Assembly: GCA_014728035.1 (NCBI GenBank)
Contig: WJMJ01000072.1
Location: forward strand, 1-41,960
Reading direction: 5' to 3'
Origin: Promethearchaeota archaeon
Lineage (GTDB): Archaea; Asgardarchaeota; Thorarchaeia; Thorarchaeales; Thorarchaeaceae
Length of the DNA: 41,960 nt
The position numbers were made by a program, and so were the translations under genes. Shown piece by piece: positions 653 through 37,833 of the stretch; position 1 is the stretch's first letter, and each line of letters opens with the position of its first letter. The notes below the pieces were generated by a model that saw only the letters and a program-made list of their open reading frames with translations, searched no databases and had not been told where the DNA came from.

Positions 653-853
653 AAGACCACCATTATCTTTCTGGAAATAATCACTCTTGAAGCTACTCCT
701 AGGTATAATGAGTAACACCACAATAGTACGTCTTTAATACTTTTAACTAGTAGGCGATGCCTATTTATGTCGGTATTAATATGCGGCGTCTTACTATCGA
801 CAATTAACGATTCGGCCTATCAGCCGAAAACGGAGGATTATCGAGTGACACAA

Positions 854-2365
854 ATGTACAATAAAGTCACCGCCGAGGTTGTAAAGAAGCTCGTTTCGAT
901 TTGTGGCGATAAATACGTTACGACAAGCGAGCCACTTCGTCACAGCTATATGGCCAGAGGCATCATGGGCAATGAGGCTGTTCTCCCAGAGTGTATTGTG
1001 AGACCTGCCAATGCAGAAGAGGTCTCCAAGATTCTCATTGTAGCAAACGAGAACCTCAGTCCAGTAACACCTGCTGCCGGAGGCCTCAGTGGAGGTTTTG
1101 CGCTTCCAGCTATAGAGCCTGGCGGAATATACATGGATATGACACGCATGGACAAGATGACTGTAGATACGGAGAATCGGGTTATGGTCGTCGAACCTGG
1201 TGTCAAGTCTGGTGACGCATGGAGAATTTTCAAGACCAAATATCCTGACTGGGCTCCACCTATTCCTGATGGTGCACCCCCAGCAGCAACCGTACTTGGT
1301 GATGCAATAGAGAGAGGTTTTTCGCTTGTGACTGGTGTTTACGGTCCTCAAGCAGATATGATCATGGGTATGGAAGTAGTTCTTCCAACAGGTGAGATTT
1401 TTCACACTGGTTCTTGGGCTCTTCCTGGAGCAAAACCCTTCTATCGTTGGGGTGTTGGACCCAATCCTGATGGTCTCTTTCTCGGTTCCCAAGGTTCAAT
1501 GGGTATCATTACTAAATGTGCTATCAAAATGGTACCTCATCCACATTACAAGACAGTAGTCGCCTATGGTGGCGAGACTTGGGATGATATCATTCGTCCA
1601 GCTTGGGAGATATCCAAACATGAGATGGGGATTGCTGAACGAACTGTTATGGTTCAGGGTGGAAATTATGAGCTTGTAATGACTAGATGGCCAAAGGAAA
1701 GTGTTCCTGTTGACTATGAATTTTACAAGAAGATTGGTGTTGACCAAAAATGGATGAACTATGAGTGTTGGGCATGGTCTAAGGAGGAGCTTGACGAGAC
1801 CTTACAGGGTATCGACAAAATCTACAAAGAGTACGAAGTCCGTGAGAAAAGAACACTCCCTCAACAGGATCTTCATCCTAAACAGGTTGCATCACGACTG
1901 AAGAAACCAAACAAGATTGCCATTCCATACTCGTTATGGCAAGCCGGATTCCTCTTCATCACATGGTATTGTCCTTGGCTTGAATCTGGTGAAATGATGG
2001 AGGAGTATTGTGCAGCAATGGAAAATTATGGATTCCCACCAACTATGTGGGTTGCGTCCATTGACCACGCTCGACAAGCAATTGTCATGCCAATCCTCTG
2101 TTATGACAGTACAGAACCTGGTATCTTTGACAAGATTAGAGAATTCAATCTTGAAACAACTAAGAGCTTCCTTAAGAAAGGCTGGATAAATTACAGACCC
2201 GACACCTTTGTCCACGCTCCAGAAACATTCGCAAAAGCGAAAGAATACTACAAGATGCTGGTGAAGTTCAGAAAAGTTCTGGATCCCAATATGATCCTGC
2301 ATCCTGGTCGGCTAGCAATCCCCTGGGAGACTGTTAGTGACAAGCCAAGTCCTCTTCAGGAGTGA
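854..2365 (+). CDS. FAD-binding oxidoreductase, GlcD/VAO-PCMH superfamily
   Basis: VRPANAEEVSKIL, VEPGV, ATVLGDAIERG, GMEVVLPTGE, GSQGSMGIITK and C-terminal LDPNMILHPG. ATG at 854 preferred over 767. Confidence 0.88.
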   Translation: MYNKVTAEVVKKLVSICGDKYVTTSEPLRHSYMARGIMGNEAVLPECIVRPANAEEVSKILIVANENLSPVTPAAGGLSGGFALPAIEPGGIYMDMTRMDKMTVDTENRVMVVEPGVKSGDAWRIFKTKYPDWAPPIPDGAPPAATVLGDAIERGFSLVTGVYGPQADMIMGMEVVLPTGEIFHTGSWALPGAKPFYRWGVGPNPDGLFLGSQGSMGIITKCAIKMVPHPHYKTVVAYGGETWDDIIRPAWEISKHEMGIAERTVMVQGGNYELVMTRWPKESVPVDYEFYKKIGVDQKWMNYECWAWSKEELDETLQGIDKIYKEYEVREKRTLPQQDLHPKQVASRLKKPNKIAIPYSLWQAGFLFITWYCPWLESGEMMEEYCAAMENYGFPPTMWVASIDHARQAIVMPILCYDSTEPGIFDKIREFNLETTKSFLKKGWINYRPDTFVHAPETFAKAKEYYKMLVKFRKVLDPNMILHPGRLAIPWETVSDKPSPLQE

Positions 2366-2437
2366 AACCTTGGAGGATGAATAAGTTACCAAACGTAACA
2401 CTAAATACACTAGAAATGGAATGGAGGAACGATTGAG

Positions 2438-3751
2438 ATGACAAGTCTAGAAGAGCTGCGAAAGATCAATGCACGTTGCATACACTGTCGTGCATGTCAA
2501 TATGCCTATTCAGGAGAACCTGATAGAGAAGGTGAGGATGAAACCTACACCGGAATGCTTCAGGGCTGTCCTGCTGGTCTATACTTTGGTTGGGAGGGTT
2601 ATTACAACTCAGGCAAACAATGGATGGCAAGGGCATTTCTGAACGGCGAACTTGCTGCAAGCAAAGAACTGCTTGAAGTGACAGAAGCGTGCACCACCTG
2701 TGGTATGTGTGAAACCCAATGCCCCAATTATATTGACACGGTTCATGTCACAGAGGCTCTACGAGCAGCTGTTATTGAAGCGGGTGTTGAACCTCTCGAC
2801 AAACACAAGATCTTTGGTGAACGAGTTAGAAACACAGAATTACGAAATCCCTACAAGGAACCTCGCGAAGAACGTACAAAGTGGCTTGGAGATAACACTG
2901 ATGTTATAGACAAAGACGCTAAGATTGCATACTATGTCGGATGCACTGCTGCATATAGACAGCAGCAGATTGCTGACCACACCGCGAGCATCTTGAAGAA
3001 AATGGGTGTTGATTTTACTGTAGTTAGCGATGAGGTCTGTTGTGGGTCTCCAATTCTTCGTACTGGTCAGCGTGACGCTTTCCACGAAGTGATGAGCGAA
3101 AATCTTGAGATGTTCAAGGATTACGACCTAGTTCTTTTCAGCTGTGCGGGTTGTTACAAGACTTTCCGTAATGATTATCCTTCACACAGTGGCGAACCAC
3201 TCCCCTTCAAAGTCCGTCACGCAGTAGAATATGCTTACGACCTGATTGAAGAAGGAAAACTCGACATCAAGAAGGAATACAAGAAGAAAGTGACATGGCA
3301 CGACCCCTGTCACAGTATTCGTCATGTCGGAATTGCCATTGAGAAAGAGATTCTTGCAGGTTCTAAGAACTGGTTGCTAGATAGCCGAAAAGCTGAGAAA
3401 GCAAAACAAGCTCATTATGAGATTCCACGTATTGTTTTGAACAATATTCCAGGACTTGAACTGGTTGAGATGTACCGTAATCGAGGTAATAGCTTCTGCT
3501 GTGGTGCTGGTGGTGGTGTCAAGGCGCAATTCCCTGACATGGCTATGTTTGCATCCAAGGAACGTCTCAAAGAAGCAGCAGCAACCGGTGCGGAGATTCT
3601 CATGACTAGCTGTCCCTTCTGCGTAACTAACTTCAATGATGGAATCAAGGCATTGAAGAAAGAAGAAGAAGCGACTGGAAAAGATCTCTCAGCAGAGGGG
3701 TCAAAGCTAAAAGTCGTTGAGCTTCTTGAACTCTTAGATGAACTATTATAG
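2438..3751 (+). CDS. Fe-S oxidoreductase with ferredoxin-type Cys motifs and two CCG domains (GlcF/HdrD-like)
   Basis: CIHCRAC...CP, CTTCGMCETQCP, YYVGC, EVCCGSP, CAGC, WHDPCH, FCCGAGGG, SCPFC. SD GGAGG upstream; co-oriented with the FAD subunit. Confidence 0.92.
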   Translation: MTSLEELRKINARCIHCRACQYAYSGEPDREGEDETYTGMLQGCPAGLYFGWEGYYNSGKQWMARAFLNGELAASKELLEVTEACTTCGMCETQCPNYIDTVHVTEALRAAVIEAGVEPLDKHKIFGERVRNTELRNPYKEPREERTKWLGDNTDVIDKDAKIAYYVGCTAAYRQQQIADHTASILKKMGVDFTVVSDEVCCGSPILRTGQRDAFHEVMSENLEMFKDYDLVLFSCAGCYKTFRNDYPSHSGEPLPFKVRHAVEYAYDLIEEGKLDIKKEYKKKVTWHDPCHSIRHVGIAIEKEILAGSKNWLLDSRKAEKAKQAHYEIPRIVLNNIPGLELVEMYRNRGNSFCCGAGGGVKAQFPDMAMFASKERLKEAAATGAEILMTSCPFCVTNFNDGIKALKKEEEATGKDLSAEGSKLKVVELLELLDELL

Positions 3752-7650: not shown

Positions 7651-7815
7651 TTGGTTTATAGAGAGATTCATGATAATTAAAGCAGAGCGGAAATGAATCG
7701 ATTAGTATCAATAGGCAATTTCTGCGGTCTTACATCTTGAATAGTTACGGTCAAACATAAAAGGGAGGATGCTTTTGACGGCCGGAGAATCATCTACGAT
7801 TATCAGGTGAAGAAT

Positions 7816-8727
7816 TTGACAGAGGCCGAGGTTGAAGATAAGAGAATAACTTTGGCTGAAGCCGCCAAAATGGTGCCAGATGGTGCTGATATGTTTTGGG
7901 GCGGCTTTGGTTACCAACGAGCTCCTATTGCATTTGCAAGTGAGCTTGTTAGACAAAAGAAACGGAATATCACAATCCATACCTGTGGTTCGGAAGTGGA
8001 CCTTGAGATTATGGCAGGTGCTGGTGTAGCAAGTCGATTCGAAATTGCTTTTACCGCCATCGAAGCTCTTGGACTTGCGAACAACATGCGAAGACGAGTT
8101 GCTGAGGGCAAGGTCGAGGTTGAAGACTATAGTAACCTTGCTATGGCTATGCGTTTTCTGGGTGGAGCACTAAATGTACCATTCATGCCAATTCGTAGCC
8201 TGATGGGTACAGACATGGTCGAAAAAGTACGTTATCGAGAAGATAAATTGAAGATTATTGATTGTCCTTTTACAGGCGATAAGATCTGTCTAGTGCCATC
8301 ACTACAACCCGATTTCAGTATTGTACATGTTCAAAGAATAGATATGAGTGGAAACGCTCAGATTGACGGAATTGTTGGTGAGGACATAGAAGGCTCTCGA
8401 TGTGGAAAGAAGCTGATTGTACTTGCTGAGGAGCTGATTGATGTGCAAGAGGTCAAAAACCGACCGGATCAAACAAAGATTCCAGCTCTCTACGTGGATC
8501 ATGTTGTTGTAGAGCCATTTGTTGCACATCCCATGCAGTGTCATATGTACTATGATTACGATTTGCCCTTCCTTCAGATGTTCCATAAGAAGACGAAATC
8601 TGAAGAGGGATGGCAGGAATACTTGAATGAGTACATACTGGGTGTTGAGAATCATCAGGAGTATCTTGCAAAAATCGGTTGGCAAAGATTGAATGCTCTT
8701 CGAGCAATGAAACCCATGGGGTATTAG
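7816..8727 (+). CDS. Family I CoA-transferase subunit A (glutaconate CoA-transferase GctA-like)
   Basis: GGFGYQRAP, EDYSN, PFMPIRSLMGTD, PDFSIVHVQRIDMSGN, AHP...YYDYD. TTG at 7816 follows SD AGGTGA (ORF track start 7807). Confidence 0.9.
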   Translation: MTEAEVEDKRITLAEAAKMVPDGADMFWGGFGYQRAPIAFASELVRQKKRNITIHTCGSEVDLEIMAGAGVASRFEIAFTAIEALGLANNMRRRVAEGKVEVEDYSNLAMAMRFLGGALNVPFMPIRSLMGTDMVEKVRYREDKLKIIDCPFTGDKICLVPSLQPDFSIVHVQRIDMSGNAQIDGIVGEDIEGSRCGKKLIVLAEELIDVQEVKNRPDQTKIPALYVDHVVVEPFVAHPMQCHMYYDYDLPFLQMFHKKTKSEEGWQEYLNEYILGVENHQEYLAKIGWQRLNALRAMKPMGY

Positions 8728-8738
8728 GAGGAAAGAAA

Positions 8739-9509
8739 ATGGTTGAATACACAAAAATAGAATTTTTAGCAGCATGTGCTTCCCGTCATGTTAGAGATGG
8801 CGAAAATGTATTTGGAGGAACTGGGCTTCCTCTATTAGCAGCACTTCTAGCAAAAGAAACCCATGCGCCAAAATCCAATCTCATCTCAGAAGCTGGATTT
8901 ATCGATGCACGACCAAAAAATGTTCCACTCTCCGTTGCAGACTCCAGATATTACTATGGTGCCTCAGCATCAATTGGACTTATTGAAACTCTAGGATTCC
9001 TTCTTCAAGGCGGAAGAATTGATGTAGGATTTCTTGGAGCAGCACAGCTTGACGAATATGGAAATCTCAATACTACCTACATTGGTTCCTTTGAGAAACC
9101 AAAGGTGAAACTTCCAGGTAGTGGCGGAGGCAATGATATCGCATCATCTGCAAAACGATTGATAATTATGATGACCCATGATAAGCGAAAATTTGTCAAG
9201 AAGCTAGACTACTTCACTAGCCCTGGTCACATGGAAGGTCCAGGTTCTCGTGAAAAATGGAATCTTGTAGGTGGTGGTCCTGAGGTTGTGATTACCGATA
9301 TGTGCCAGATGGATTTTGACCCTGACACCTTGAAGATACGATTAATGTCGGTACATCCTGGTTATACTGTTGAAGATATTCTTGACAATGTCATGTTCGA
9401 TCTGATAGTTCCGGATGAGGTTCCCACGACAAAAGAGCCAACTCAAGACCAGATTGACATAATGCACAGATTGGACCCAAATGGTATCTATCTTGGCAAA
9501 GGTGGCTAG
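8739..9509 (+). CDS. Family I CoA-transferase subunit B (GctB-like)
   Basis: GTGLP, catalytic-Glu region ISEAG, DVGFLGAAQLDEYGNLNTT, LPGSGGGND, SVHPG. SD AGGAGG before ATG 8739. Confidence 0.92.
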   Translation: MVEYTKIEFLAACASRHVRDGENVFGGTGLPLLAALLAKETHAPKSNLISEAGFIDARPKNVPLSVADSRYYYGASASIGLIETLGFLLQGGRIDVGFLGAAQLDEYGNLNTTYIGSFEKPKVKLPGSGGGNDIASSAKRLIIMMTHDKRKFVKKLDYFTSPGHMEGPGSREKWNLVGGGPEVVITDMCQMDFDPDTLKIRLMSVHPGYTVEDILDNVMFDLIVPDEVPTTKEPTQDQIDIMHRLDPNGIYLGKGG

Positions 9510-11847: not shown

Positions 11848-12246
11848 TTGAGTTCAAAAAAGATTAGAGTCCTTGTGGCAAAGCCCGGTCTGGATGGTCA
11901 TGACCGTGGTGCGAAAGTAGTTGCTCGTGCTTTACGTGATGCTGGAATGGAGGTTATCTATACAGGTCTCAGGCAGACACCCGAGATGATCGTAGAAGCT
12001 GCAATTCAGGAAGATGTGGATGTTATTGGTATGAGTATTCTGAGTGGTGCACACATGGCGTTATTTCCAAAAGTCATGGAATTACTAAAGGCTGAGGATG
12101 CTGATGACATTCTTGTTGTTGGTGGTGGCATTATCCCTGAAGATGATATTCCCGAGCTGAAGAAGCATGGAATCAATGCGATTTTTGGTCCTGGAACACC
12201 TCTTGAGGATATCGTAAAGTACATTCGTGAAAATGTCAAATTATAG
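11848..12246 (+). CDS. mcmB: Methylmalonyl-CoA mutase, cobalamin-binding small subunit
   Basis: [12 protein letters not shown] (DxHxxG), SILSGAH, VGGGIIP, FGPGT. Confidence 0.96.
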
Positions 12247-12251
12247 CTTCT

Positions 12252-13226
12252 GTGAGGACATTAGAATTGTCTGAGGAGCGATTGATTGAGGGAGTTTTGA
12301 GCGGCAAACGCAGGTCTCTTGCCCGTCTAATCTCTCTTATAGAAGATGAGGATTCTTCGGTATCACGAATACTGGCAAGACTATACCGTCACACTGGTAA
12401 AGCACATATCGTTGGAGTTACCGGTCCACCTGGGTCTGGAAAGAGTACTCTAGTGACCAGATTAACTGCTGAATTGCGATCTAGGGGACATACTATTGGA
12501 ATTATTTGTGTTGATCCTTCAAGTCCTTTTACTGGAGGCGCTCTTCTTGGTGATAGAATTCGCATGCAAGAACATGCTTTGGATAAGGAAGTGTTTGTAC
12601 GAAGTATGGGTACTCGTGGTCATTTAGGTGGTCTAGCTCGTTCTACTTCTGATGCTGTACGAGCTGTTGATGCATTTGGAAAGGATATTGTATTAGTAGA
12701 AACCGTGGGTGCTGGTCAGTCAGAGGTTGAAGTGGTCGGAATTGCCCATACTGTGTTAGTAACTGATGTTCCTGGCAGTGGGGATGACATTCAAGCAATC
12801 AAGGCTGGCATTATGGAGATTGCAGATATATTCGTGGTGAACAAGTGTGACCTTCCTGGTGCTGATAAGAAAGTCACAGAGATTAATGCTATGTTAGATA
12901 TTGCCCCTATGGCTGATAAATGGAGACCCCCAGTTGTTCAGACCAATGGCAGAACGGGAGAGGGCATTCCCGAACTTGTAGATAAGATTGACGAGCATAT
13001 GGACTACTTGAAATCCTCTGGTATGCTTGAGCATAAAGGATTGCAACGTAGTCGTGAAGAGCTTGAGCAGATTATGGAATACAAACTCACTAGAGAGCTG
13101 ATGACTAAACTTCAAGGCACAGATGAGTTCGAGAAAGCTATCGAACAGATAGCAAAACGTGATGCGGATCCCTATACTATCGCTGAACGGCTAATTGCGG
13201 AATTTCTCGCAAGTTGTAGAGAGTAG
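12252..13226 (+). CDS. meaB: Methylmalonyl-CoA mutase-associated GTPase MeaB
   Basis: [50 protein letters not shown]. Confidence 0.97.
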
Positions 13227-14905
13227 TGAAAACGATGAACAAGAAACAGGAAATTGCTGATGCATTGGAAAACTGGGAGAATACAACTCTTTCACAAACC
13301 ATCAGTAAATATCCCGAGCGAAAAGAAGAGTTCACAACGATTTCTGAGATACCTCTGAAACGTATCTATACTCCTCTTGATATTGAAAAGAAGGATTACC
13401 TTCAAGACCTTGGCTTCCCTGGCGAGTATCCATACACCCGTGGTGTACAACCCACAATGTACCGTGGACGCTTCTGGACAATGCGGCAATATAGTGGATT
13501 CGCTACAGCCAAGGAGAGTAATCAGCGATTTCGATTTCTTCTTGAACAAGGGCAGACTGGTCTATCTGTAGCATTTGATCTCCCTACTCAGATTGGCTAT
13601 GATTCTGACCATCCTCTGTCAAATGGTGAGGTGGGAAAAGTAGGTGTTGCTATTGACTCGCTTGCGGACATGGAGGTTCTCTTTGAGAGAATCCCGCTCG
13701 ATAAGGTGTCAACATCCATGACAATAAACGCTCCAGCAGCTGTTTTGCTTGCTATGTATATTGTAGTTGCAGAGAAGCAAGGCGTTCCAATGGATAAGCT
13801 TCGAGGCACTATTCAGAATGATATCCTGAAAGAATATGTGGCTCGAGGAACCTATATCTTTCCACCAGGGCCCTCTATGCGTCTGATTACAGACACTTTC
13901 AAATTCTGTTCTGAACACATGCCTAGATGGAATACCATATCAATTTCTGGTTACCATATACGTGAGGCTGGTTCAACAGCTGTGCAAGAGGTGGCATTTA
14001 CGTTAGCTGATGGCATTGCTTATGTGCAAGCTGCTATCGGTGCTGGTCTTGATGTCGATAGTTTTGCTTCAAGACTTTCCTTCTTCTTTGGGTCGCATAG
14101 TGATTTCCTCGAGGAGATAGCCAAATTCAGAGCTGCCAGAAGATTATGGGCTAGAATCATGAAAGAGCGTTTTCATGCGAAGAGCGATCAATCATGTAGG
14201 ATGCGATTTCACACACAGACCGCAGGTTGTACCCTGACTGCGCAACAACCAGATAATAATGTAGTTAGGGTTACTCTTCAAGCACTACAGGCAGTTCTTG
14301 GCGGTACTCAATCACTGCATACTAATTCTCGTGACGAAGCATTATCACTTCCTACCAGAGAGTCTGTTCAGATTGCTTTACGTACACAACAGATTATTGC
14401 CTATGAGACTGGTGTTGGCGACACAATTGACCCATTGGCTGGTTCCTACTTCATCGAATCTCTTACAGATGAGATTGAAAAGAGAGCTATGGAATATATA
14501 GACAAGATAGACTCGATGGGTGGAGCACCAGCAGCAATTGAAAAGGGCTTCATACAGCGTGAAATTCATGACAGTGCATATTCTTTCCAACGCTCTGTCG
14601 ATGAAGATGCAAGAATAGTTGTGGGAGTGAATCAATTCAAGGTTGATGAGGAACAAGTGTTTGACTATCTTCGTGTTGATCCTGTCACAGAACTTAGTCA
14701 GAAGGAAAAATTGCTGGAAATGAAGATGTCCCGCGATACGAGTAAAGTAACTGATGTTCTAGCTCGATTGAAGAAAGCTGCTGAGGGTGATGAGAATCTT
14801 ATGCCAGTGCTTATCGAAGCAGTCAAAGAATATGCTACACTTGGAGAGATTTGTCAGGTTCTCCGTGATGTGTTTGGAGAGTACAAAGCACCGGATATCC
14901 TCTAG
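13226..14905 (+). CDS. mcmA: Methylmalonyl-CoA mutase, substrate-binding large subunit
   Basis: [18 protein letters not shown] (Tyr specificity position), [13 protein letters not shown] (Arg specificity position), [17 protein letters not shown]. Confidence 0.96.
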
Positions 14906-14916
14906 GAGGAAAAAAA

Positions 14917-15330
14917 TTGACCGTTGAAAAAATAGACCATATTGGTATAGCAGTAGATAGCATTGAGAAATGGCTTGTATATTATAGAGACACACTTGGT
15001 CTTCAATATACTGGGTCTGAAGTAGTAGAAGAACAGAAGGTGAAGGTTGCCTTTTTGGGAATCGGCGAGAGTCGAATTGAATTACTTGAACCAACAGCAG
15101 ACGATAGTCCTATCGCACGATTCCTTGAAAAAAGAGGTTCCGGAATTCATCACATTGCAGTACGAGTGGATGACATAGAAGCTGCAATCAAGGCACACAA
15201 AGAATCTGGGTCTCGAATGATTGACGAAACTCCCCGTACCGGAGCACACAATATGCGAATTGCCTTTGTCCATCCTAAAACCACTGGTGGCGTGCTTATG
15301 GAACTCTGCCAATCACCTCCAGAGCATTAA
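14917..15330 (+). CDS. mce: Methylmalonyl-CoA epimerase
   Basis: IDHIGIAV, RIELLEP, GIHHIAVRV, FVHPKTTGGVLMEL. Last gene of the mutase operon. Confidence 0.95.
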   Translation: MTVEKIDHIGIAVDSIEKWLVYYRDTLGLQYTGSEVVEEQKVKVAFLGIGESRIELLEPTADDSPIARFLEKRGSGIHHIAVRVDDIEAAIKAHKESGSRMIDETPRTGAHNMRIAFVHPKTTGGVLMELCQSPPEH

Positions 15331-18936: not shown

Positions 18937-19228
18937 TAGGACCACTCTTGTTTGAAGTTTATATATCTAATATAAGTTCTCTGTGGACTGCTCTTATATT
19001 ATACAAATGGTGAAACATCCCCTATCTTATTCTTTTTGGGTATGTTCTTCTGACCATGTCGGATAAATCTGATTTATAACTCTCATTTCATCAGTATTTT
19101 TGAAATTTGATGTGCATTGAGAGACGAATATTTGTTCAAATGGCTTGAGAGGAATCAACCAGAATCTTGAACCAGCACTTCCAAGATATTTCGATTAAGT
19201 GACCTTAGCATTCGGGTGTGAAATTATC

Positions 19229-20017
19229 ATGAGTGGAAAAGATTGGCAAAAGCTCCTCAAAACAAACCGGTTGAATCCTGTTATTCATAGATTCTCCTCT
19301 GTAGACTCTACGAATGATGTTATCAAAGACTTTTTACAAGACTCATCTGAACAAAATCCAGTCGTAATTGCACTTCAGCAAACCCAAGGAAAAGGGCGTT
19401 TGGATCGTAAATGGATCTCCCCGATAGGTGGACTTTATCTCTCTGTAGCAATAGATTTGCGCATTCCTGCTGAAAATTCACCTTTATTGGTTTTGTTGGT
19501 CGGGAGCGCTTGTGTATCTTCGATTAGAAATTTGACAGCGATCGATGCCGGATTGAAATGGCCAAATGATATACTTGTTAGTGACCGGAAAGTGGGTGGA
19601 ATACTTTGTGAGCTCGTGTTGGATTCTAAAGGCAATTACTATGTTATTGCTGGAATTGGGATCAATGTGAATACCAATATGGCTGAACTTCCACCCGATG
19701 TTCAAAAGATATCAACTAATCTTGAATCTACTCTATCGATTCACAAGCTAGCTGTCCACATCCTTAATGGGATTGATAGTCGATTGATTACTATAGAGGG
19801 TGAATCCGGTATTGATTGCATTCTTAAAGAATGGGAAAATCTGAGTCTTACTATCGGTAGAAGGATATTGGTGAATTTAGGAAACTCCACAATTCATGGT
19901 ACTGCTCTTGGTGTTACTGAAGATGGGGCCCTAATAGTTAAAGAAACAAATGGGACACAAACAATAGTAGATGTTGGAGATGTAGAGCATCTACATCAAA
20001 CTGATACTTACTATTAG
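19229..20017 (+). CDS. birA: Biotin-protein ligase without N-terminal HTH
   Basis: DSTND, QTQGKGRLDRKWISP, LKWPND, KVGGILCE, GIGINV, C-terminal DGALIV..GDV. Confidence 0.95.
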   Translation: MSGKDWQKLLKTNRLNPVIHRFSSVDSTNDVIKDFLQDSSEQNPVVIALQQTQGKGRLDRKWISPIGGLYLSVAIDLRIPAENSPLLVLLVGSACVSSIRNLTAIDAGLKWPNDILVSDRKVGGILCELVLDSKGNYYVIAGIGINVNTNMAELPPDVQKISTNLESTLSIHKLAVHILNGIDSRLITIEGESGIDCILKEWENLSLTIGRRILVNLGNSTIHGTALGVTEDGALIVKETNGTQTIVDVGDVEHLHQTDTYY

Positions 20018-24110: not shown

Positions 24111-25658
24111 ATGACAAAAGACGGCTTTGAAGAGCTTAAGAAGAAGCGTGAAGAATTACTGAAAGCTGGTGGAGAAGCAAGAATCAAGCGCCAGCATGAC
24201 AAAGGAAAATATACCGCTCGTGAGCGGATTGAGAAGTTCCTTGATCCTGGCTCATTTGTCGAAATTGATGAATTTGTGGTACATCGAGAGACCGAATTTG
24301 GAATGGATAAGAAGACCATTCTTGGTGATGGTGTAATCACCGGCTATGGAACCGTAAACGGTCGTAAAGTGTTTGTCTTCAGTCAGGACTTTACTGTATT
24401 TGGTGGTTCTCTAGCTGAGATGTATGGTTTGAAAATCTGTAAGGTCATGGACATGGCTCTTGAAACTGGTGCCCCAGTAATCGGCTTCAATGATAGTGGT
24501 GGAGCAAGAATACAAGAGGGTGTAAAGTCTCTCGCTAGTTATTGCTGGATATTCCGTCGAAATACTCATGCGAGTGGAGTCATTCCCCAAATATCTGCAA
24601 TCATGGGCCCCTGTGCTGGCGGTGCTGTTTATAGTCCGGCCGTTACCGATTTCACCTTCATGGTCAAAGAGACCTCTCATATGTTCATCACTGGACCTGA
24701 AGTCATCAAGACGGTCACAGGAGAAGAGGTCAGTTTTGAAGAATTGGGTGGAGCTATGACTCATAACTCTGTAAGTGGGGTCTCTCACTTTGCTAGCGAA
24801 GATGAGGATGAATGTATTGCCCAACTTCGAACCCTGCTCAGTTACATACCAAGCAATAACATGGAAGATCCACCAAGAATTGACACAGGACACTCTCCTG
24901 ATGATGTCGATGAGTCAATTGATGAGGTCGTACCAGAAGATCCAAACAAACCATATGATATGCGTGAAGTCATTACAAAGCTTGTGGATAATGGTGAATT
25001 CTTTGAGGTCCATGAGCACTGGGCAAAGAACATGACCGTTGGGTTTGCCAGATTTGATGGGCGTTCAGTAGGTATTGTCGGAAATAATCCTGCACACTTA
25101 GCTGGAACCATCAACATAGATGCATCCGATAAATGCTCACGTTTTGTCAGATTCTGTGATGCTTTCAATATCCCTGTTATCACATTCATGGATGTGCCAG
25201 GTTATCTTCCAGGCACTGAACAGGAATGGGGTGGTATCATCCGTCATGGTGCAAAGATACTCTATGCTTATGCTGAAGCAACTGTTCCACTGATTACGAT
25301 CATTACACGAAAGGGATACGGAGGAGCATACGATGTTATGTCCTCTCGTCACATTGGTGCAGATCAGGTCTATGCTTGGCCTACTGCTGAGATTGCTGTG
25401 ATGGGTCCAGATGGTGCTATCAATATCGTGTTCAGAAAAGAGTTAGCAAAGGCTGAAGATAAGGTTGCAAAGAAAGCCGAATTAGTTGCAAACTACAGAG
25501 AGAAGTTTGCTAATCCGTATATTGCTGCGGGACTTGGCTACATCGATAAGGTCATCTTCCCCCATGAGACTCGAAAACTCATCTGTCAGGGACTCGATAT
25601 TCTCTCAACAAAGAGACAGACCCGTCCACCAAAGAAGCATGGAAACATTCCACTGTAA
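24111..25658 (+). CDS. pccB: Acyl-CoA carboxyltransferase (propionyl-CoA carboxylase beta / transcarboxylase 12S / methylmalonyl-CoA decarboxylase alpha family)
   Basis: [66 protein letters not shown]. Confidence 0.95.
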
Positions 25659-34163: not shown

Positions 34164-34310
34164 ATAATCCACAAAGTTTTCAGAACCTTTTCTGACAAAA
34201 GATTACCTATTAAAACAATGGGCACAACTATCAAAGTTCTACTACAGTTTGTGGAACTCCTGAACAGAATGACTAAATAGACTTCTATCTCAAAAGAATC
34301 TCGGTCTGCA

Positions 34311-35894
34311 ATGAAGAAATTACTCATTACCGACACAACTTTACGAGATGCACATCAGTCTCTTATCGCGACCCGAATGCGTACTGAACACATGCTCCCA
34401 ATCTGTGAAAAAATCGATAAGATTGGATACCACTCTCTTGAGATGTGGGGTGGGGCTACTTTTGATAGCATGATGCGGTTCCTTGATGAAGACCCTTGGG
34501 AACGCGTTGAACTGCTCAAAAGTGCTATGCCTAAAACTCCATTCCAGATGCTTCTTCGCGGTTCTAATGTCGTTGGATACAAACAATATCCCGATGACGT
34601 ACTCGAGGCCTTTGTAGAAGAAGCAGTGAAGGTGGGCATTGATATTTTTCGGATTTTTGATGCTCTTAATGATGTTCGAAACATGAAGGCGGCGATGAAG
34701 TTTGTAAATCGGGAGGGAGGTCACACGCAGGCTAGTATCAGTTACACAACATCTCCTGTACATACAATAGAGAAATTCGTAGAGACCGCAAAGGAATTAG
34801 CGGCACTTGATGCAGACTCAATATGTATCAAAGACATGGCGGGGTTGATAACACCTAAAGCTGCAGCTGATCTTGTTACACGTCTGAAAGAAGAGGTTTC
34901 GATACCAATTCAATTGCATTCCCATTATACAAGTGGAATGGCATCCATGGCGTATCTGAAAGCAGCTGAGGTTGGAGTGGATGTTGTAGACTGTGCCATA
35001 TCGTCATTATCCGGAGCGACTTCTCAACCTGCAACAGAATCGATTGTTGAGAGTCTTAAAGGAAGCTCCCGTGATACAAAGCTGAACGTGAACCTGTTGG
35101 CAGACATTGCGTCATATTTCCGAGATATCAGAAGAAAGTATGCTCAATTTGAAGGAAGCTTGCAAGGTGTGAATCCTCAGGTGTTGGTCTTCCAGATTCC
35201 TGGTGGAATGTTATCTAATCTGGACAATCAACTTCGGGAACAGGGAGCACTTGATAGATACGATGAGGTGTTAGAAGAAGTACCACGAGTCAGAGCGGAC
35301 CTTGGTTATCCCCCACTAGTTACACCTTCCAGTCAGATAGTTGGAACGCAGGCTACATTGAATGTTGTCACTGGAGAACGATATAAGATGGTTCCGCACG
35401 AGGTAAAACAATACGTTAGAGGATATTATGGGCGGCCACCAGCACCTATCGACCCGGAGATCAAGAAGCTGATTATTGGAGATGAAGAACCTTTGGATGA
35501 TCGTCCTGCTAGTCTGCTCAAACCAGAACTACCCAAGGCGAAAGAAGCACTCAAGGATATTCCTCATGAACGTCGCGACCTTATTTCTTATGCACTCTTT
35601 CCTCAATATGCTCTGGATTTTCTGAAAAGAAAAGCTGCTAGAACTACCATGGGTGAGATTACTGAAGAACACGAGATTGCTCTTATTGCAGCAGTTCTAC
35701 ATAGTAGCAGACAGGCGGGTGCAGGTGTAGTGAGCACACATGGATTAGGTGGAGCTTGGAGTCAAGGAGCACGCGAAGGACTTCATGACGGCAGAGTAGT
35801 TACTCTTACCGGGCAATGGGAACGAGCATCATCTCGGTGGAGTTCTGTAGGAAGAAAACGATTGATGAAGTCAAGACAACAGGGGGGTCCATAA
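34311..35894 (+). CDS. Pyruvate/oxaloacetate carboxyltransferase (transcarboxylase 5S / PycB / OadA-like) without biotinyl domain, with C-terminal docking-type extension
   Basis: DTTLRDAHQS, EMWGGATFD, FRIFDALND, CIKDMAG, HSH metal motif, QIPGGMLSN, PPLVTPSSQIVG. No AMKM motif. Confidence 0.93.
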   Translation: MKKLLITDTTLRDAHQSLIATRMRTEHMLPICEKIDKIGYHSLEMWGGATFDSMMRFLDEDPWERVELLKSAMPKTPFQMLLRGSNVVGYKQYPDDVLEAFVEEAVKVGIDIFRIFDALNDVRNMKAAMKFVNREGGHTQASISYTTSPVHTIEKFVETAKELAALDADSICIKDMAGLITPKAAADLVTRLKEEVSIPIQLHSHYTSGMASMAYLKAAEVGVDVVDCAISSLSGATSQPATESIVESLKGSSRDTKLNVNLLADIASYFRDIRRKYAQFEGSLQGVNPQVLVFQIPGGMLSNLDNQLREQGALDRYDEVLEEVPRVRADLGYPPLVTPSSQIVGTQATLNVVTGERYKMVPHEVKQYVRGYYGRPPAPIDPEIKKLIIGDEEPLDDRPASLLKPELPKAKEALKDIPHERRDLISYALFPQYALDFLKRKAARTTMGEITEEHEIALIAAVLHSSRQAGAGVVSTHGLGGAWSQGAREGLHDGRVVTLTGQWERASSRWSSVGRKRLMKSRQQGGP

Positions 35895-36418
35895 TGAGTC
35901 CCAAGTACGAAGCATCAATTGATGATAGAATTTACGAGGTTGACGTGAAGACACTTGATGAAGGAGGTCTTCTTATCGTAAAGATAGGAGAACAGAGTTA
36001 TTCAATCAAGACGACACAGAATGAGGATGGGACTTGGACCGCAAATGATACGACTTCCGACTATACCATCGATATTGTGAAACGAACTGGCTCAAAGATT
36101 GAATTGGAAATTAATGGCGAGCAACGTGTATTAGAATGGGGGCGAAAAAGATCCCAAGACACAATAGCTCCGACAACAACCTCGTCGAAAAGTGGTCCAA
36201 AGGAAGAGGGTGGTGTTTACCCACCAATGCCTGGAAAGATTACTGAAGTTCACGTCGAAGTGGGTACCGAAGTTTCAAGTGGTGAAACAGTATGTATCCT
36301 AGAAGCAATGAAGATGTTCAATGAACTCAAATCTCCTAAAGATGGGATTGTGAAAGAAGTTAATATCAAACAAGGTTCAATGGTTACACCTACAGATTTG
36401 CTGATATTGATTGAATGA
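35894..36418 (+). CDS. Biotin carboxyl carrier protein with N-terminal beta-rich domain
   Basis: PMPGKI...LEAMKMFNE biotinylation site. ATG overlaps the upstream stop (TAATG). Confidence 0.93.
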   Translation: MSPKYEASIDDRIYEVDVKTLDEGGLLIVKIGEQSYSIKTTQNEDGTWTANDTTSDYTIDIVKRTGSKIELEINGEQRVLEWGRKRSQDTIAPTTTSSKSGPKEEGGVYPPMPGKITEVHVEVGTEVSSGETVCILEAMKMFNELKSPKDGIVKEVNIKQGSMVTPTDLLILIE

Positions 36419-36431
36419 AGGTCTGATACAA

Positions 36432-37598
36432 ATGCCAGATGTAAATGTGATTGGAGTTGGAATGACACCTTTTGGAGTGCTTGAAGATGGGATAACTGAT
36501 TTAGCAATCCAGGCTGCCATGGAAGCTATGATGGACTCGTCAACACTAGAATACTCTTTTGACCGGCTTGTCGTAGGCTCTCAGAATCCGGATGAGTTCA
36601 CAGAAAAGGGTCATTTATCTACCCTACTTGCAGATCGTCTTGGTCTGGTTCCTGCAGGTGCAACTCGTGTTGAAACAGGCCCATCTTCTGGCTCTAGTGC
36701 TTTTGAAACTGGTTATGCTATGGTTGCATCTGGACTAGCAGAACTCGTTCTTGTAATCGGTGTCGAGAAAATGTCTGCTGTGAAACGTGGCATTGCTTCC
36801 AAAATCCTAGCAAAGATGATGAGTTACGATAACGAAATTCCTTATGGTGCAACTCCTGCTGCTCTTGGTGCTATGGTTGCTCGAAGATATATGCATGATT
36901 ATGGTCTTACTCGTGATGAATTATCTCTGGTTCCGGTGAAGGCTCACAAAAACGGTGCGAAAAACCCGCTTGCTCATTTCCAAAAAGAAGTGACCGTTGA
37001 AAAGGTAAGTAATAGTCGAATTATTGCAGATCCTCTCACCCTATACGATAGTTGTCCTACATCAGACGGAGCGGCTGCAGTTGTGATTGCATCAGATAGT
37101 ATAGTTCGTCAATTAGGCCTGAAAGATCAAGCTATCAAGGTTGTAGGTATTGGACATGGTACTGATTATCATGCAGTACAACATCGCTTGTCGCTAACAT
37201 CTTTCTATGCAACAATTCATGCTGCAAACCTTGCTTTTACCATGGCTGGCATCGAACCTGAGAATGTTGATATATGTGAGATTCATGATGCATTCTCAAT
37301 TCTTGAATTGGTCAATTTGGAAGATTTAGGTTTGGCAGAACGTGGAAACGCAATAGAATCAATCAAGGATGGCACTTCAGAGGTTGGTGGGTCAATGCCT
37401 GTTAATCCAAGTGGGGGTCTCAAATCCCGAGGCCATCCTACAGGAGCTACCGGTATAGCCCAGATTCGTGATTTGGTTCTACAATTACGTGGTCTCTATC
37501 CCACACCCCTCCAAGTAGATGATCCTGAAATTGGACTTGCCCACAATATTGGGGGTTTTGGAAACAATATGCTTGTTACAATTCTAAGTAGAAATTAG
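36432..37598 (+). CDS. SCP-x-type thiolase-family protein lacking the acylation-site cysteine
   Basis: IGVGMTPFG, GVEKMS, NPLAHFQ, PTSDGAAA, EIHDAF, VNPSGGLKSRGHPTGATG, HNIGG. VETGPSSG occupies the position of the usual VExACASG. Confidence 0.9.
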   Translation: MPDVNVIGVGMTPFGVLEDGITDLAIQAAMEAMMDSSTLEYSFDRLVVGSQNPDEFTEKGHLSTLLADRLGLVPAGATRVETGPSSGSSAFETGYAMVASGLAELVLVIGVEKMSAVKRGIASKILAKMMSYDNEIPYGATPAALGAMVARRYMHDYGLTRDELSLVPVKAHKNGAKNPLAHFQKEVTVEKVSNSRIIADPLTLYDSCPTSDGAAAVVIASDSIVRQLGLKDQAIKVVGIGHGTDYHAVQHRLSLTSFYATIHAANLAFTMAGIEPENVDICEIHDAFSILELVNLEDLGLAERGNAIESIKDGTSEVGGSMPVNPSGGLKSRGHPTGATGIAQIRDLVLQLRGLYPTPLQVDDPEIGLAHNIGGFGNNMLVTILSRN

Positions 37599-37833
37599 TT
37601 ACACGTTTCTAGTAAAATTATCAGAATATCGAATTATTGTAACATTTGTACAAAGTTTCCTTATTAATAATCATTTCTTCTTTTTCACTAGAATGAACAA
37701 GGTTTGACAAGAGCACAATTCACTAGGGACAAAGAATTGTGGTCTAATTAAAGGGGTCTGCTTTCGAAAAACACCTTGGTTCTATCGTTAGATGACTCCT
37801 TTTCAGTCGGATATCATAATGGAGTAAAACAAA

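Follow-up and report, generated by a model that had tools for sequence, protein, structure and literature searches.

A candidate ATP-independent transcarboxylase of Thorarchaeia with an adaptor-like tail on its 5S-type subunit and a PCC-like biotin carrier

A stretch of 41,960 nucleotides from an Asgard archaeon of the class Thorarchaeia (contig WJMJ01000072.1 of assembly GCA_014728035.1; hereafter the window) encodes a 5S-type pyruvate/oxaloacetate carboxyltransferase, a biotin carrier directly downstream of it and a 12S-type acyl-CoA carboxyltransferase 8.7 kb upstream. The best overall explanation of our data, to which we assign a probability of about 60%, is that these three products make up the sole biotin enzyme of the cell, an ATP-independent methylmalonyl-CoA:pyruvate transcarboxylase in which the carrier is docked through a C-terminal tail of the 5S-type subunit. 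Such an enzyme would catalyse the reaction oxaloacetate + propionyl-CoA <-> pyruvate + (S)-methylmalonyl-CoA without ATP, and its product would feed the methylmalonyl-CoA mutase and epimerase encoded in the same window. Taken by itself, the transcarboxylase function is likely from the gene content, and docking of the tail helix within the N-terminal domain of the carrier, as modelled, is a proposal whose chances we put a little under even. The source genome is a metagenome-assembled genome of 4.33 Mb in 173 contigs (97.9% complete, 8.5% contamination), in which the window is contig C38, and the class-level sample comprised 81 Thorarchaeia genomes, 24 of them high-quality and two assembled as single contigs (G057 and G059).

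The 5S-type gene (34311–35894, + strand, 527 aa; Pfam HMGL-like and PYC_OADA) is the only PYC_OADA match in the whole genome. The best NCBIfam match of its product was NF006761 (PycB domain), with 746 bits over residues 1–452, and the structures 5KS8_C, 2NX9 and 1RQB aligned with it only to about residue 449; the carboxyltransferase part spans residues 1 to ~447. Residues D13, K174, H203 and H205, which occupy the metal, carbamyl-lysine and catalytic positions, were invariant in the 61 homologues on which invariance was judged. As the preliminary description of this DNA had stated, no biotinyl domain was found in the protein by Pfam, NCBIfam or PDB comparison, and the matches are followed instead by a tail of 80 aa. 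Homologues are annotated publicly as pyruvate carboxylase subunit B or as oxaloacetate decarboxylase alpha, names which are probably misleading as to function. In one genome of the sample the 5S gene (G017:C22:12501–12740) contains a single in-frame TGA codon, which could be a sequencing error or the mark of a pseudogene.

The 12S/PccB-type carboxyltransferase (24111–25658, + strand, 515 aa; identified by TIGR01117 and PDB matches) is the only Carboxyl_trans gene in the genome, and its product matched 1VRG with 710 bits, PccB of Streptomyces coelicolor (1XNV) with 707 bits and the 12S subunit of Propionibacterium freudenreichii subsp. shermanii (1ON3) with 604 bits. The gene was found in 70 of the 81 genomes; in most genomes of the class it shares contig and strand with the 5S gene, often at a distance of 0.5–10 kb, and in genus g5 (G005, G010, G039, G047 and G052) it directly adjoins it. 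In a genome related to G017 the 12S copy (G029:C4:48777–50246) has three in-frame TGA codons in the main match, and a short match covering its start contains another two; here too sequencing errors or a pseudogene could be responsible. A biotin protein ligase gene, birA (19199–20017, + strand; Pfam BPL_LplA_LipB and BPL_C), also lies in the window. Biotin_lipoyl was matched twice in the genome; as the second match belongs to a 2-oxoacid dehydrogenase, whose lipoyl-bearing E2 it represents, the genome holds one biotin carrier and two carboxyltransferases.

The partners that would make these proteins part of an ATP-driven or ion-pumping enzyme were sought in the window, the genome and the class. 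Neither Biotin_carb_C nor OAD_beta was found in the window or in the 97.9%-complete genome. Biotin_carb_C was found in none of the 81 class genomes, the single-contig ones included, by a search that in a control rang in 13 of 14 known genomes. OAD_beta was matched in two of the 81, both times weakly, once in a 61-aa fragment at a contig end of a genome with 7% contamination and once below the cut-off, and in none of the 24 high-quality genomes. In both single-contig genomes the tail and the 12S gene were present, and a biotin carboxylase and OadB were not found. The preliminary description had noted a stand-alone PccB/12S gene and BirA nearby, had seen neither a biotin carboxylase (BC) nor a sodium-pump beta subunit in the window, and had derived from this an ATP-independent transcarboxylase, to be checked by a search of the whole genome; the observations were confirmed, and the genome-wide search supports the transcarboxylase as the likely reading. 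Thus a set of one 12S, one 5S, one carrier and BirA, with no ATP or pump module found, points to a methylmalonyl-CoA:pyruvate transcarboxylase. Within the limits of genomics, this rules out both a pyruvate carboxylase that uses ATP and a decarboxylase that pumps sodium.

The tail that follows the carboxyltransferase part (aa 448–527; 35652–35891, + strand) is the proposed docking module. The remaining two frames across it are closed by many stops and more than 90 distinct homologues of the 5S protein keep it, so that an origin by frameshift or other artefact was ruled out. It begins with a hydrophobic helix predicted by AlphaFold2, TEEHEIALIAAVLH (aa 451–470; 35661–35720, +), which would be the central helix of a BT-like barrel. 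There follow three motifs on the same strand: GAWSQGAR (35751–35774), with W483 invariant in the homologue alignment and recovered in the alignment with the protein P0126 described below; GQWERAS (35811–35831), with W503 nearly invariant among homologues; and SRWSSVGRKRLM (35832–35867), with W510 and G514 invariant in the same alignment. A tail of ~80 aa with a helix, GAWSQGAR and a second Trp/Arg motif had been described from the sequence at the outset; this was borne out, and GQWERAS adds a third motif. In the alignment of 67 tails, A457, W483, W510 and G514 (alignment positions A10, W36, W63 and G67) were invariant, and G1, L16 (L463), H17 (H464), W56 (W503), R68 (R515) and M72 were nearly so.

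A profile of the tail matched 65 of the 81 Thorarchaeia genomes and 23 of the 24 high-quality ones, and on intact contigs it almost always closed an open frame of ~530 aa. Within the phylum the tail is confined to the thorarchaeial family, where it was found in 42 of 48 genomes as against none of 152 outside. It contains no transmembrane helix. When the 5S protein was folded alone with AlphaFold2, helices were predicted at residues 452–471, 482–489 and 509–520, with the pLDDT of the tail below 50 from residue 468 onwards; this low confidence fits a segment that would become ordered only on binding.

The junction between the 5S and carrier genes (35881–35896, + strand) consists of a Shine-Dalgarno-like GGGGGG run and, 6 nt further on, a TAATG overlap in which the 5S stop TAA (35892–35894) shares its last nucleotide with the carrier ATG (35894–35896). 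In another genus a GGGGG run is retained and the ATG stands 7 nt after the TAA. The translational coupling of the two genes proposed earlier is thus supported by both the overlap and the run. A look for sequencing runs covering 34200–37700 returned none, and no RNA data set was listed. The carrier gene itself (35894–36418, + strand; Pfam Biotin_lipoyl) encodes 174 aa. Its start was placed at 35894 because most of 72 homologues are 173–176 aa long, and an alternative ATG at 35816 was rejected on these lengths. The biotinyl domain occupies aa 106–174 (Pfam and homologue alignment), and K140 of its EAMKM motif, encoded at 36311–36313 (+), is invariant among the carrier homologues, as is the motif.

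Ahead of the biotinyl domain the carrier has a BT-like N-terminal domain (aa 1–85; 35894–36148, +). In an AlphaFold2 model built on 63 sequences, eight strands were predicted within residues 4–84 at a pLDDT of ~70–85, followed by a disordered linker at residues 86–100, which agrees with the long beta-rich N-terminus first described. No helix was predicted in residues 1–100, so that the model lacks the central helix of a BT domain in cis. The top Foldseek matches of the model were the BT+BCCP parts of human and bacterial propionyl-CoA carboxylase (PCC), of MCC and of yeast ACC, over ~175 columns and with E values down to 5e-11. By VIA, residues 1–174 aligned with residues 557–728 of human PCC alpha (8XL3_A), a segment which we take to be the BT region after the central helix together with BCCP. 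The likening of the carrier to that of PCC is in this respect upheld; since the biotinyl domain dominates the Z-scores, the match of the N-terminal domain rests mainly on alignment coverage and ranking. The Pfam family ACCA_BT gave 15.1 bits (E 0.02) against the carrier, below its cut-off of 27. The 1.3S subunit of P. shermanii (1DD2) aligned by VIA with residues 98–174 of the model only, which sets the carrier apart from the 1.3S type.

A helix-bearing tail on one subunit and a helix-less BT-like domain on the next suggest how the two might fit together. Complex prediction for the tail with carrier residues 1–100 gave a score of 0.55, with the best of three controls at 0.01 (range 0.00–0.01), a result rated as weak support; at least 88% of contacts agreed between runs, and the partner pLDDT was at least 48. 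In calibration, passing scores were obtained for 58 of 80 solved complexes and for 2 of 110 mismatched pairs; passes at 0.60 or less came from only 7 of the 80 solved complexes and from both of these mismatches, counts which are rough for the present case because the prediction used its own alignments (tail A1 and carrier A2). The preliminary description had proposed that the tail helix completes a BT barrel with the carrier and that the tail belongs with AccE; the complex prediction weakly favours the first proposal, and the second found no support, as set out below.

In the classical transcarboxylase 12S and 5S are joined by the 1.3S subunit through its short and flexible N-terminal segment, and, to our knowledge, the attachment of the 5S dimers to the 12S core is poorly resolved even in that enzyme. 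The thorarchaeial holoenzyme would be held together otherwise than that of Propionibacterium. The helix at aa 451–470 of the 5S tail would insert in the eight-stranded N-terminal domain of the carrier and complete a BT-type barrel in trans, the three Trp/Arg motifs would anchor this tail-carrier unit on the 12S hexamer, and the biotinyl domain would swing between the 5S and 12S active sites, shuttling CO2.

Relatives of the tail were sought among 1.8 billion representative proteins by hmmsearch with its profile. Six matches were returned, namely four thorarchaeial fragments and the metagenome proteins P0121 and P0126. P0121, of 1477 aa, consists of 28 identical repeats of ~52 aa with a W..SPW motif; it probably arose when a tandem DNA repeat was misassembled or spuriously translated, and is not a relative. 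P0126 (E 1.7e-4) is the informative match. It is a protein of 108 aa, and on a metagenome contig its gene is flanked by one for a 12S-type carboxyltransferase and one for a biotin carrier. By hhalign the tail alignment matched P0126 with 96.3% probability (E 1.8e-9) over 70 columns spanning the helix and all Trp/Arg motifs, where SSWKLAGR is the counterpart of motif 1, and PRWAR and KWSLAGRRDLM are those of motifs 2 and 3. This homology marks the tail as the fused form of a small protein of adaptor type, which in other genomes is encoded by a gene of its own beside those for 12S and carrier. P0126 in turn scored against the MmdE model (NF047904) at E 1.7e-4, below the cut-off, and had a faint precomputed match to PccX.

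Beyond P0126 the searches yielded little. Pfam and NCBIfam gave no matches to the tail alone, even at E 10, and the OAD_gamma and MmdE profiles, run over the whole genome, gave only chance-level matches elsewhere. PDB searches with the tail profile, P0126 and a bacterial tail returned only chance Myb-like matches, or matches to 1RQB and 5KS8 that fell in the conserved final part of their carboxyltransferase domain, and a word-based search with P0126 as query recovered P0126 alone. Look-alikes of the tail and of P0126 in the ESM Atlas reached 0.80–0.81 at best and were small unnamed Bacteroidota proteins, a score that amounts to no more than a lead. OadG/MmdD-like proteins of Bacteroidota may also have a Trp motif of this kind at their ends. 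The tie of the tail to the AccE, PccX and MmdE families is likewise a lead.

The closest 5S homologues outside Thorarchaeia, P0117–P0120 (63–69% identity), have a shorter tail composed of the helix and one Trp motif. The operon of P0118 (locus L021:5318–10004, on a contig of GCA_034435435.1) comprises 12S, a cupin, two small genes, 5S and carrier; the carrier, directly downstream of 5S, has a beta-rich N-terminus, and the neighbouring genes look bacterial. The two small genes between 12S and 5S were considered as adaptors and rejected, their sequences looking like an unrelated inserted pair. From this bacterial-looking operon the design of 5S tail and carrier seems not to be confined to archaea, and with P0118 as the nearest relative outside the class, genes may have passed between bacteria and Thorarchaeia. 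The history first suggested, in which a pyruvate carboxyltransferase took the place of the BC module of an archaeal PCC, is doubtful, because relatives outside the class have the shorter tail and one of them lies in this operon.

A number of results weigh against a transcarboxylase with a tail-docked carrier. Without a good prior, a pass with a complex score as low as 0.55 is more likely to be wrong than right, and part of the score may come from BT domains of known structure that the model has memorised. The ACC_epsilon and MmdE models and the solved structures gave no significant match to the tail: ACC_epsilon (PF13822) matched only 3 of the 67 tails, with a best E of 0.024, which is not significant, MmdE (NF047904) did not match it, and no match was found to the AccE chains of the PDB, including 9YX1, or to any other solved chain. 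The proposal that the tail is a member of the AccE/PccX/MmdE group is thus not supported by these comparisons. The equivalog model for the 5S subunit of methylmalonyl-CoA carboxytransferase, NF008984, gave the 5S protein 536.6 bits, below its cut-off of 827. In the window unrelated genes fill the 8.7 kb between 12S and 5S. A conserved thiolase-fold gene in the operon, lacking the catalytic Cys, has no place in the model. Finally, no classical malate dehydrogenase of the LDH/MDH family was found in the genome, so that the genes recovered do not add up to a complete Wood-Werkman cycle.

The alternative that survives best accepts the transcarboxylase and gives the tail another task, as an AccE/PccX/MmdE-like clamp placed directly on 12S or as an element of 5S oligomerisation or regulation, with the carrier N-terminal domain docking alone. 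It draws on the kinship of the tail with P0126, an adaptor-like protein that stands alone and is encoded beside a 12S-type gene, on the weakness of the support from the tail-carrier prediction and on the disorder of the tail when 5S is folded alone. However, the helix of the tail has a strongly hydrophobic character, and the carrier domain, which resembles the BT region of PCC, has no helix of its own; the 5S and carrier genes are translationally coupled; and the controls of the complex prediction remained at 0.00–0.01. We consider this alternative unlikely on balance.

A second alternative, less probable again, is that the enzyme serves another acyl-CoA pair (for example oxaloacetate:acetyl-CoA, giving malonyl-CoA), or that 5S, the carrier and the thiolase-fold protein form an enzyme without 12S. 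The thiolase-fold gene (36411–37598, + strand; Pfam Thiolase_N and Thiolase_C_1) overlaps the end of the carrier gene, and its product has a Pro at the site expected for the nucleophilic Cys (RVETGPSSG). Six loci of another thorarchaeial genus (L010–L015) have 5S, carrier and thiolase-like gene in the same order and retain GPSSG. The protein may belong to the complex as a fourth subunit, or it may be a non-thiolytic enzyme associated with the biotin enzyme. This conserved third gene favours a separate enzyme, as does the distance between 12S and 5S in the source genome, and the score of the 12S protein against the mmdA subfamily model TIGR01117 (862 bits, cut-off 999) leaves room for another substrate. 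Against this, the nearest relatives of the 12S protein are propionyl-CoA carboxyltransferases of the PccB type, and the window itself encodes the B12-binding small subunit of methylmalonyl-CoA mutase, MeaB, the mutase large subunit and methylmalonyl-CoA epimerase (11848–15330, + strand). Moreover, 12S directly adjoins 5S in another genus, and without 12S a single carrier with 5S would have no second half-reaction.

It is very improbable that the genes encode the soluble parts of a sodium-translocating decarboxylase, acting on oxaloacetate or methylmalonyl-CoA, with a membrane subunit that escaped recognition through divergence or was left unassembled. OadA and MmdA are the closest named families, and helix-plus-Trp proteins resemble the adaptor subunits of such pumps, as seen in the weak match of P0126 to MmdE. 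OAD_beta is, however, a highly conserved family, and it was found neither in the source genome nor in the high-quality or single-contig genomes, with only the two weak matches among the 81; the tail, in addition, is free of a transmembrane helix. That the 5S protein is the split PycB of an ATP-dependent two-subunit pyruvate carboxylase with PycA encoded elsewhere, as its best NCBIfam and PDB matches and the public annotation would have it, is close to refuted by the failure to find Biotin_carb_C in the source genome or in any genome of the class.

Other genes of the window and genome touch the same metabolism. Two CoA-transferase subunit genes lie at 7807–9509 (+ strand; Pfam CoA_trans). At 767–3751 (+) a gene for an FAD_binding_4 protein is followed by one for a CCG/4Fe-4S protein; the pair looks like a GlcD/GlcF- or D-lactate-dehydrogenase-type system and could feed pyruvate to the transcarboxylase. 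Contig C16 of the source genome (L019 and L005) holds a second mutase large subunit gene (C16:8161–9699) and a 2-oxoacid dehydrogenase E1-beta/E2 pair, the latter unusual for an anaerobic archaeon. The genome also has matches to an SDH/fumarate reductase flavoprotein and to class I fumarase, and the transcarboxylase could serve either to form propionate or to assimilate propionyl-CoA. At C25:126615–129335 the flavoprotein and fumarase matches each contain one in-frame stop (TAG and TAA), which could reflect adjacent genes, sequencing errors or pseudogenes.

The preliminary description had further held that a transcarboxylase of this kind was not described in archaea. At the level of the pathway this was wrong, as genes of the methylmalonyl-CoA transcarboxylase type and propionate metabolism are listed for Asgard archaea by Imachi et al. 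2020 (PMC7015854). As a reading of the gene set the transcarboxylase stands up but was already published in 2020, the same inference having been drawn there from the same three genes and the biotin ligase; in the portion of that report consulted, the 5S tail and the BT-like domain of the carrier are not mentioned. What is plausibly new, and weakly supported by computation, is the PCC-like docking design, that is, a conserved adaptor tail fused to 5S together with a helix-less BT-like carrier.

With the transcarboxylase of P. freudenreichii subsp. shermanii (EC 2.1.3.1; 1ON3, 1RQB and 1DCZ) the thorarchaeial set shares the composition of 12S, 5S and carrier without an ATP module, the TIM barrel of 5S with the same metal ligands and the link to the methylmalonyl-CoA mutase pathway. 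In contrast to that enzyme, the thorarchaeial carrier has an eight-stranded domain of 85 aa, the 5S protein ends in an 80-aa helix-plus-Trp tail unlike the C-terminus of 1RQB, and the 12S protein resembles PccB more than it does 1ON3. The BT+BCCP part of PCC alpha (3N6R, 7YBU and 8XL3) provides the best full-length structural matches of the carrier model, and the partner is PccB-like in both cases; unlike PCC alpha, the thorarchaeial carrier lacks a BC domain and a BT helix in cis.

The mycobacterial LCC complex (PMC13012033, 2026) offers a further comparison, in which the N-terminal helix of AccE lies inside an eight-stranded barrel of AccA3 hairpins and its C-terminal helical hairpin anchors on the AccD hexamer. 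The proposed thorarchaeial barrel would likewise be formed in trans, with a helix enclosed by strands from the carrier side, and the tail has its elements in the same order as AccE, a long helix and then two short predicted helices. The two differ in that AccE is a free protein and the strands come from four AccA3 chains, whereas the thorarchaeial helix is fused to a carboxyltransferase and one carrier would supply all eight; the AccE/AccA3 complex is also ATP-dependent, and the tail has no detectable sequence similarity to AccE. With the adaptors MmdE/MmdD, OadG, PccX and AccE at large, the likeness runs through P0126, which is encoded between 12S-type and carrier genes and gives the weak MmdE and PccX signals mentioned above. 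The tail differs from these adaptors in having no membrane anchor, in being fused to 5S and in passing none of the family models run against it.

Extending the design beyond the source genome is a tentative step, and we put it forward with less confidence than its parts: Thorarchaeia and some apparently bacterial lineages may build their transcarboxylase on a PCC-like plan, with a split BT barrel and a Trp/Arg anchor on a PccB-type hexamer. If true, transcarboxylases would have a second quaternary design, so far undescribed, and a single helix-plus-anchor adaptor module, free or fused, would allow BC, sodium-pump and 5S partners to be swapped on one carboxyltransferase core. ATP-dependent acyl-CoA carboxylases, sodium-pumping decarboxylases and ATP-free transcarboxylases would then belong to one modular helix-in-barrel family, and the fused docking module would make a tractable system for structural work on transcarboxylase assembly. 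For the organisms themselves, the class-wide sample points to Thorarchaeia with a single ATP-independent biotin enzyme that would join pyruvate and oxaloacetate to propionyl-CoA and methylmalonyl-CoA, and this bears on the published models of Asgard fermentation.

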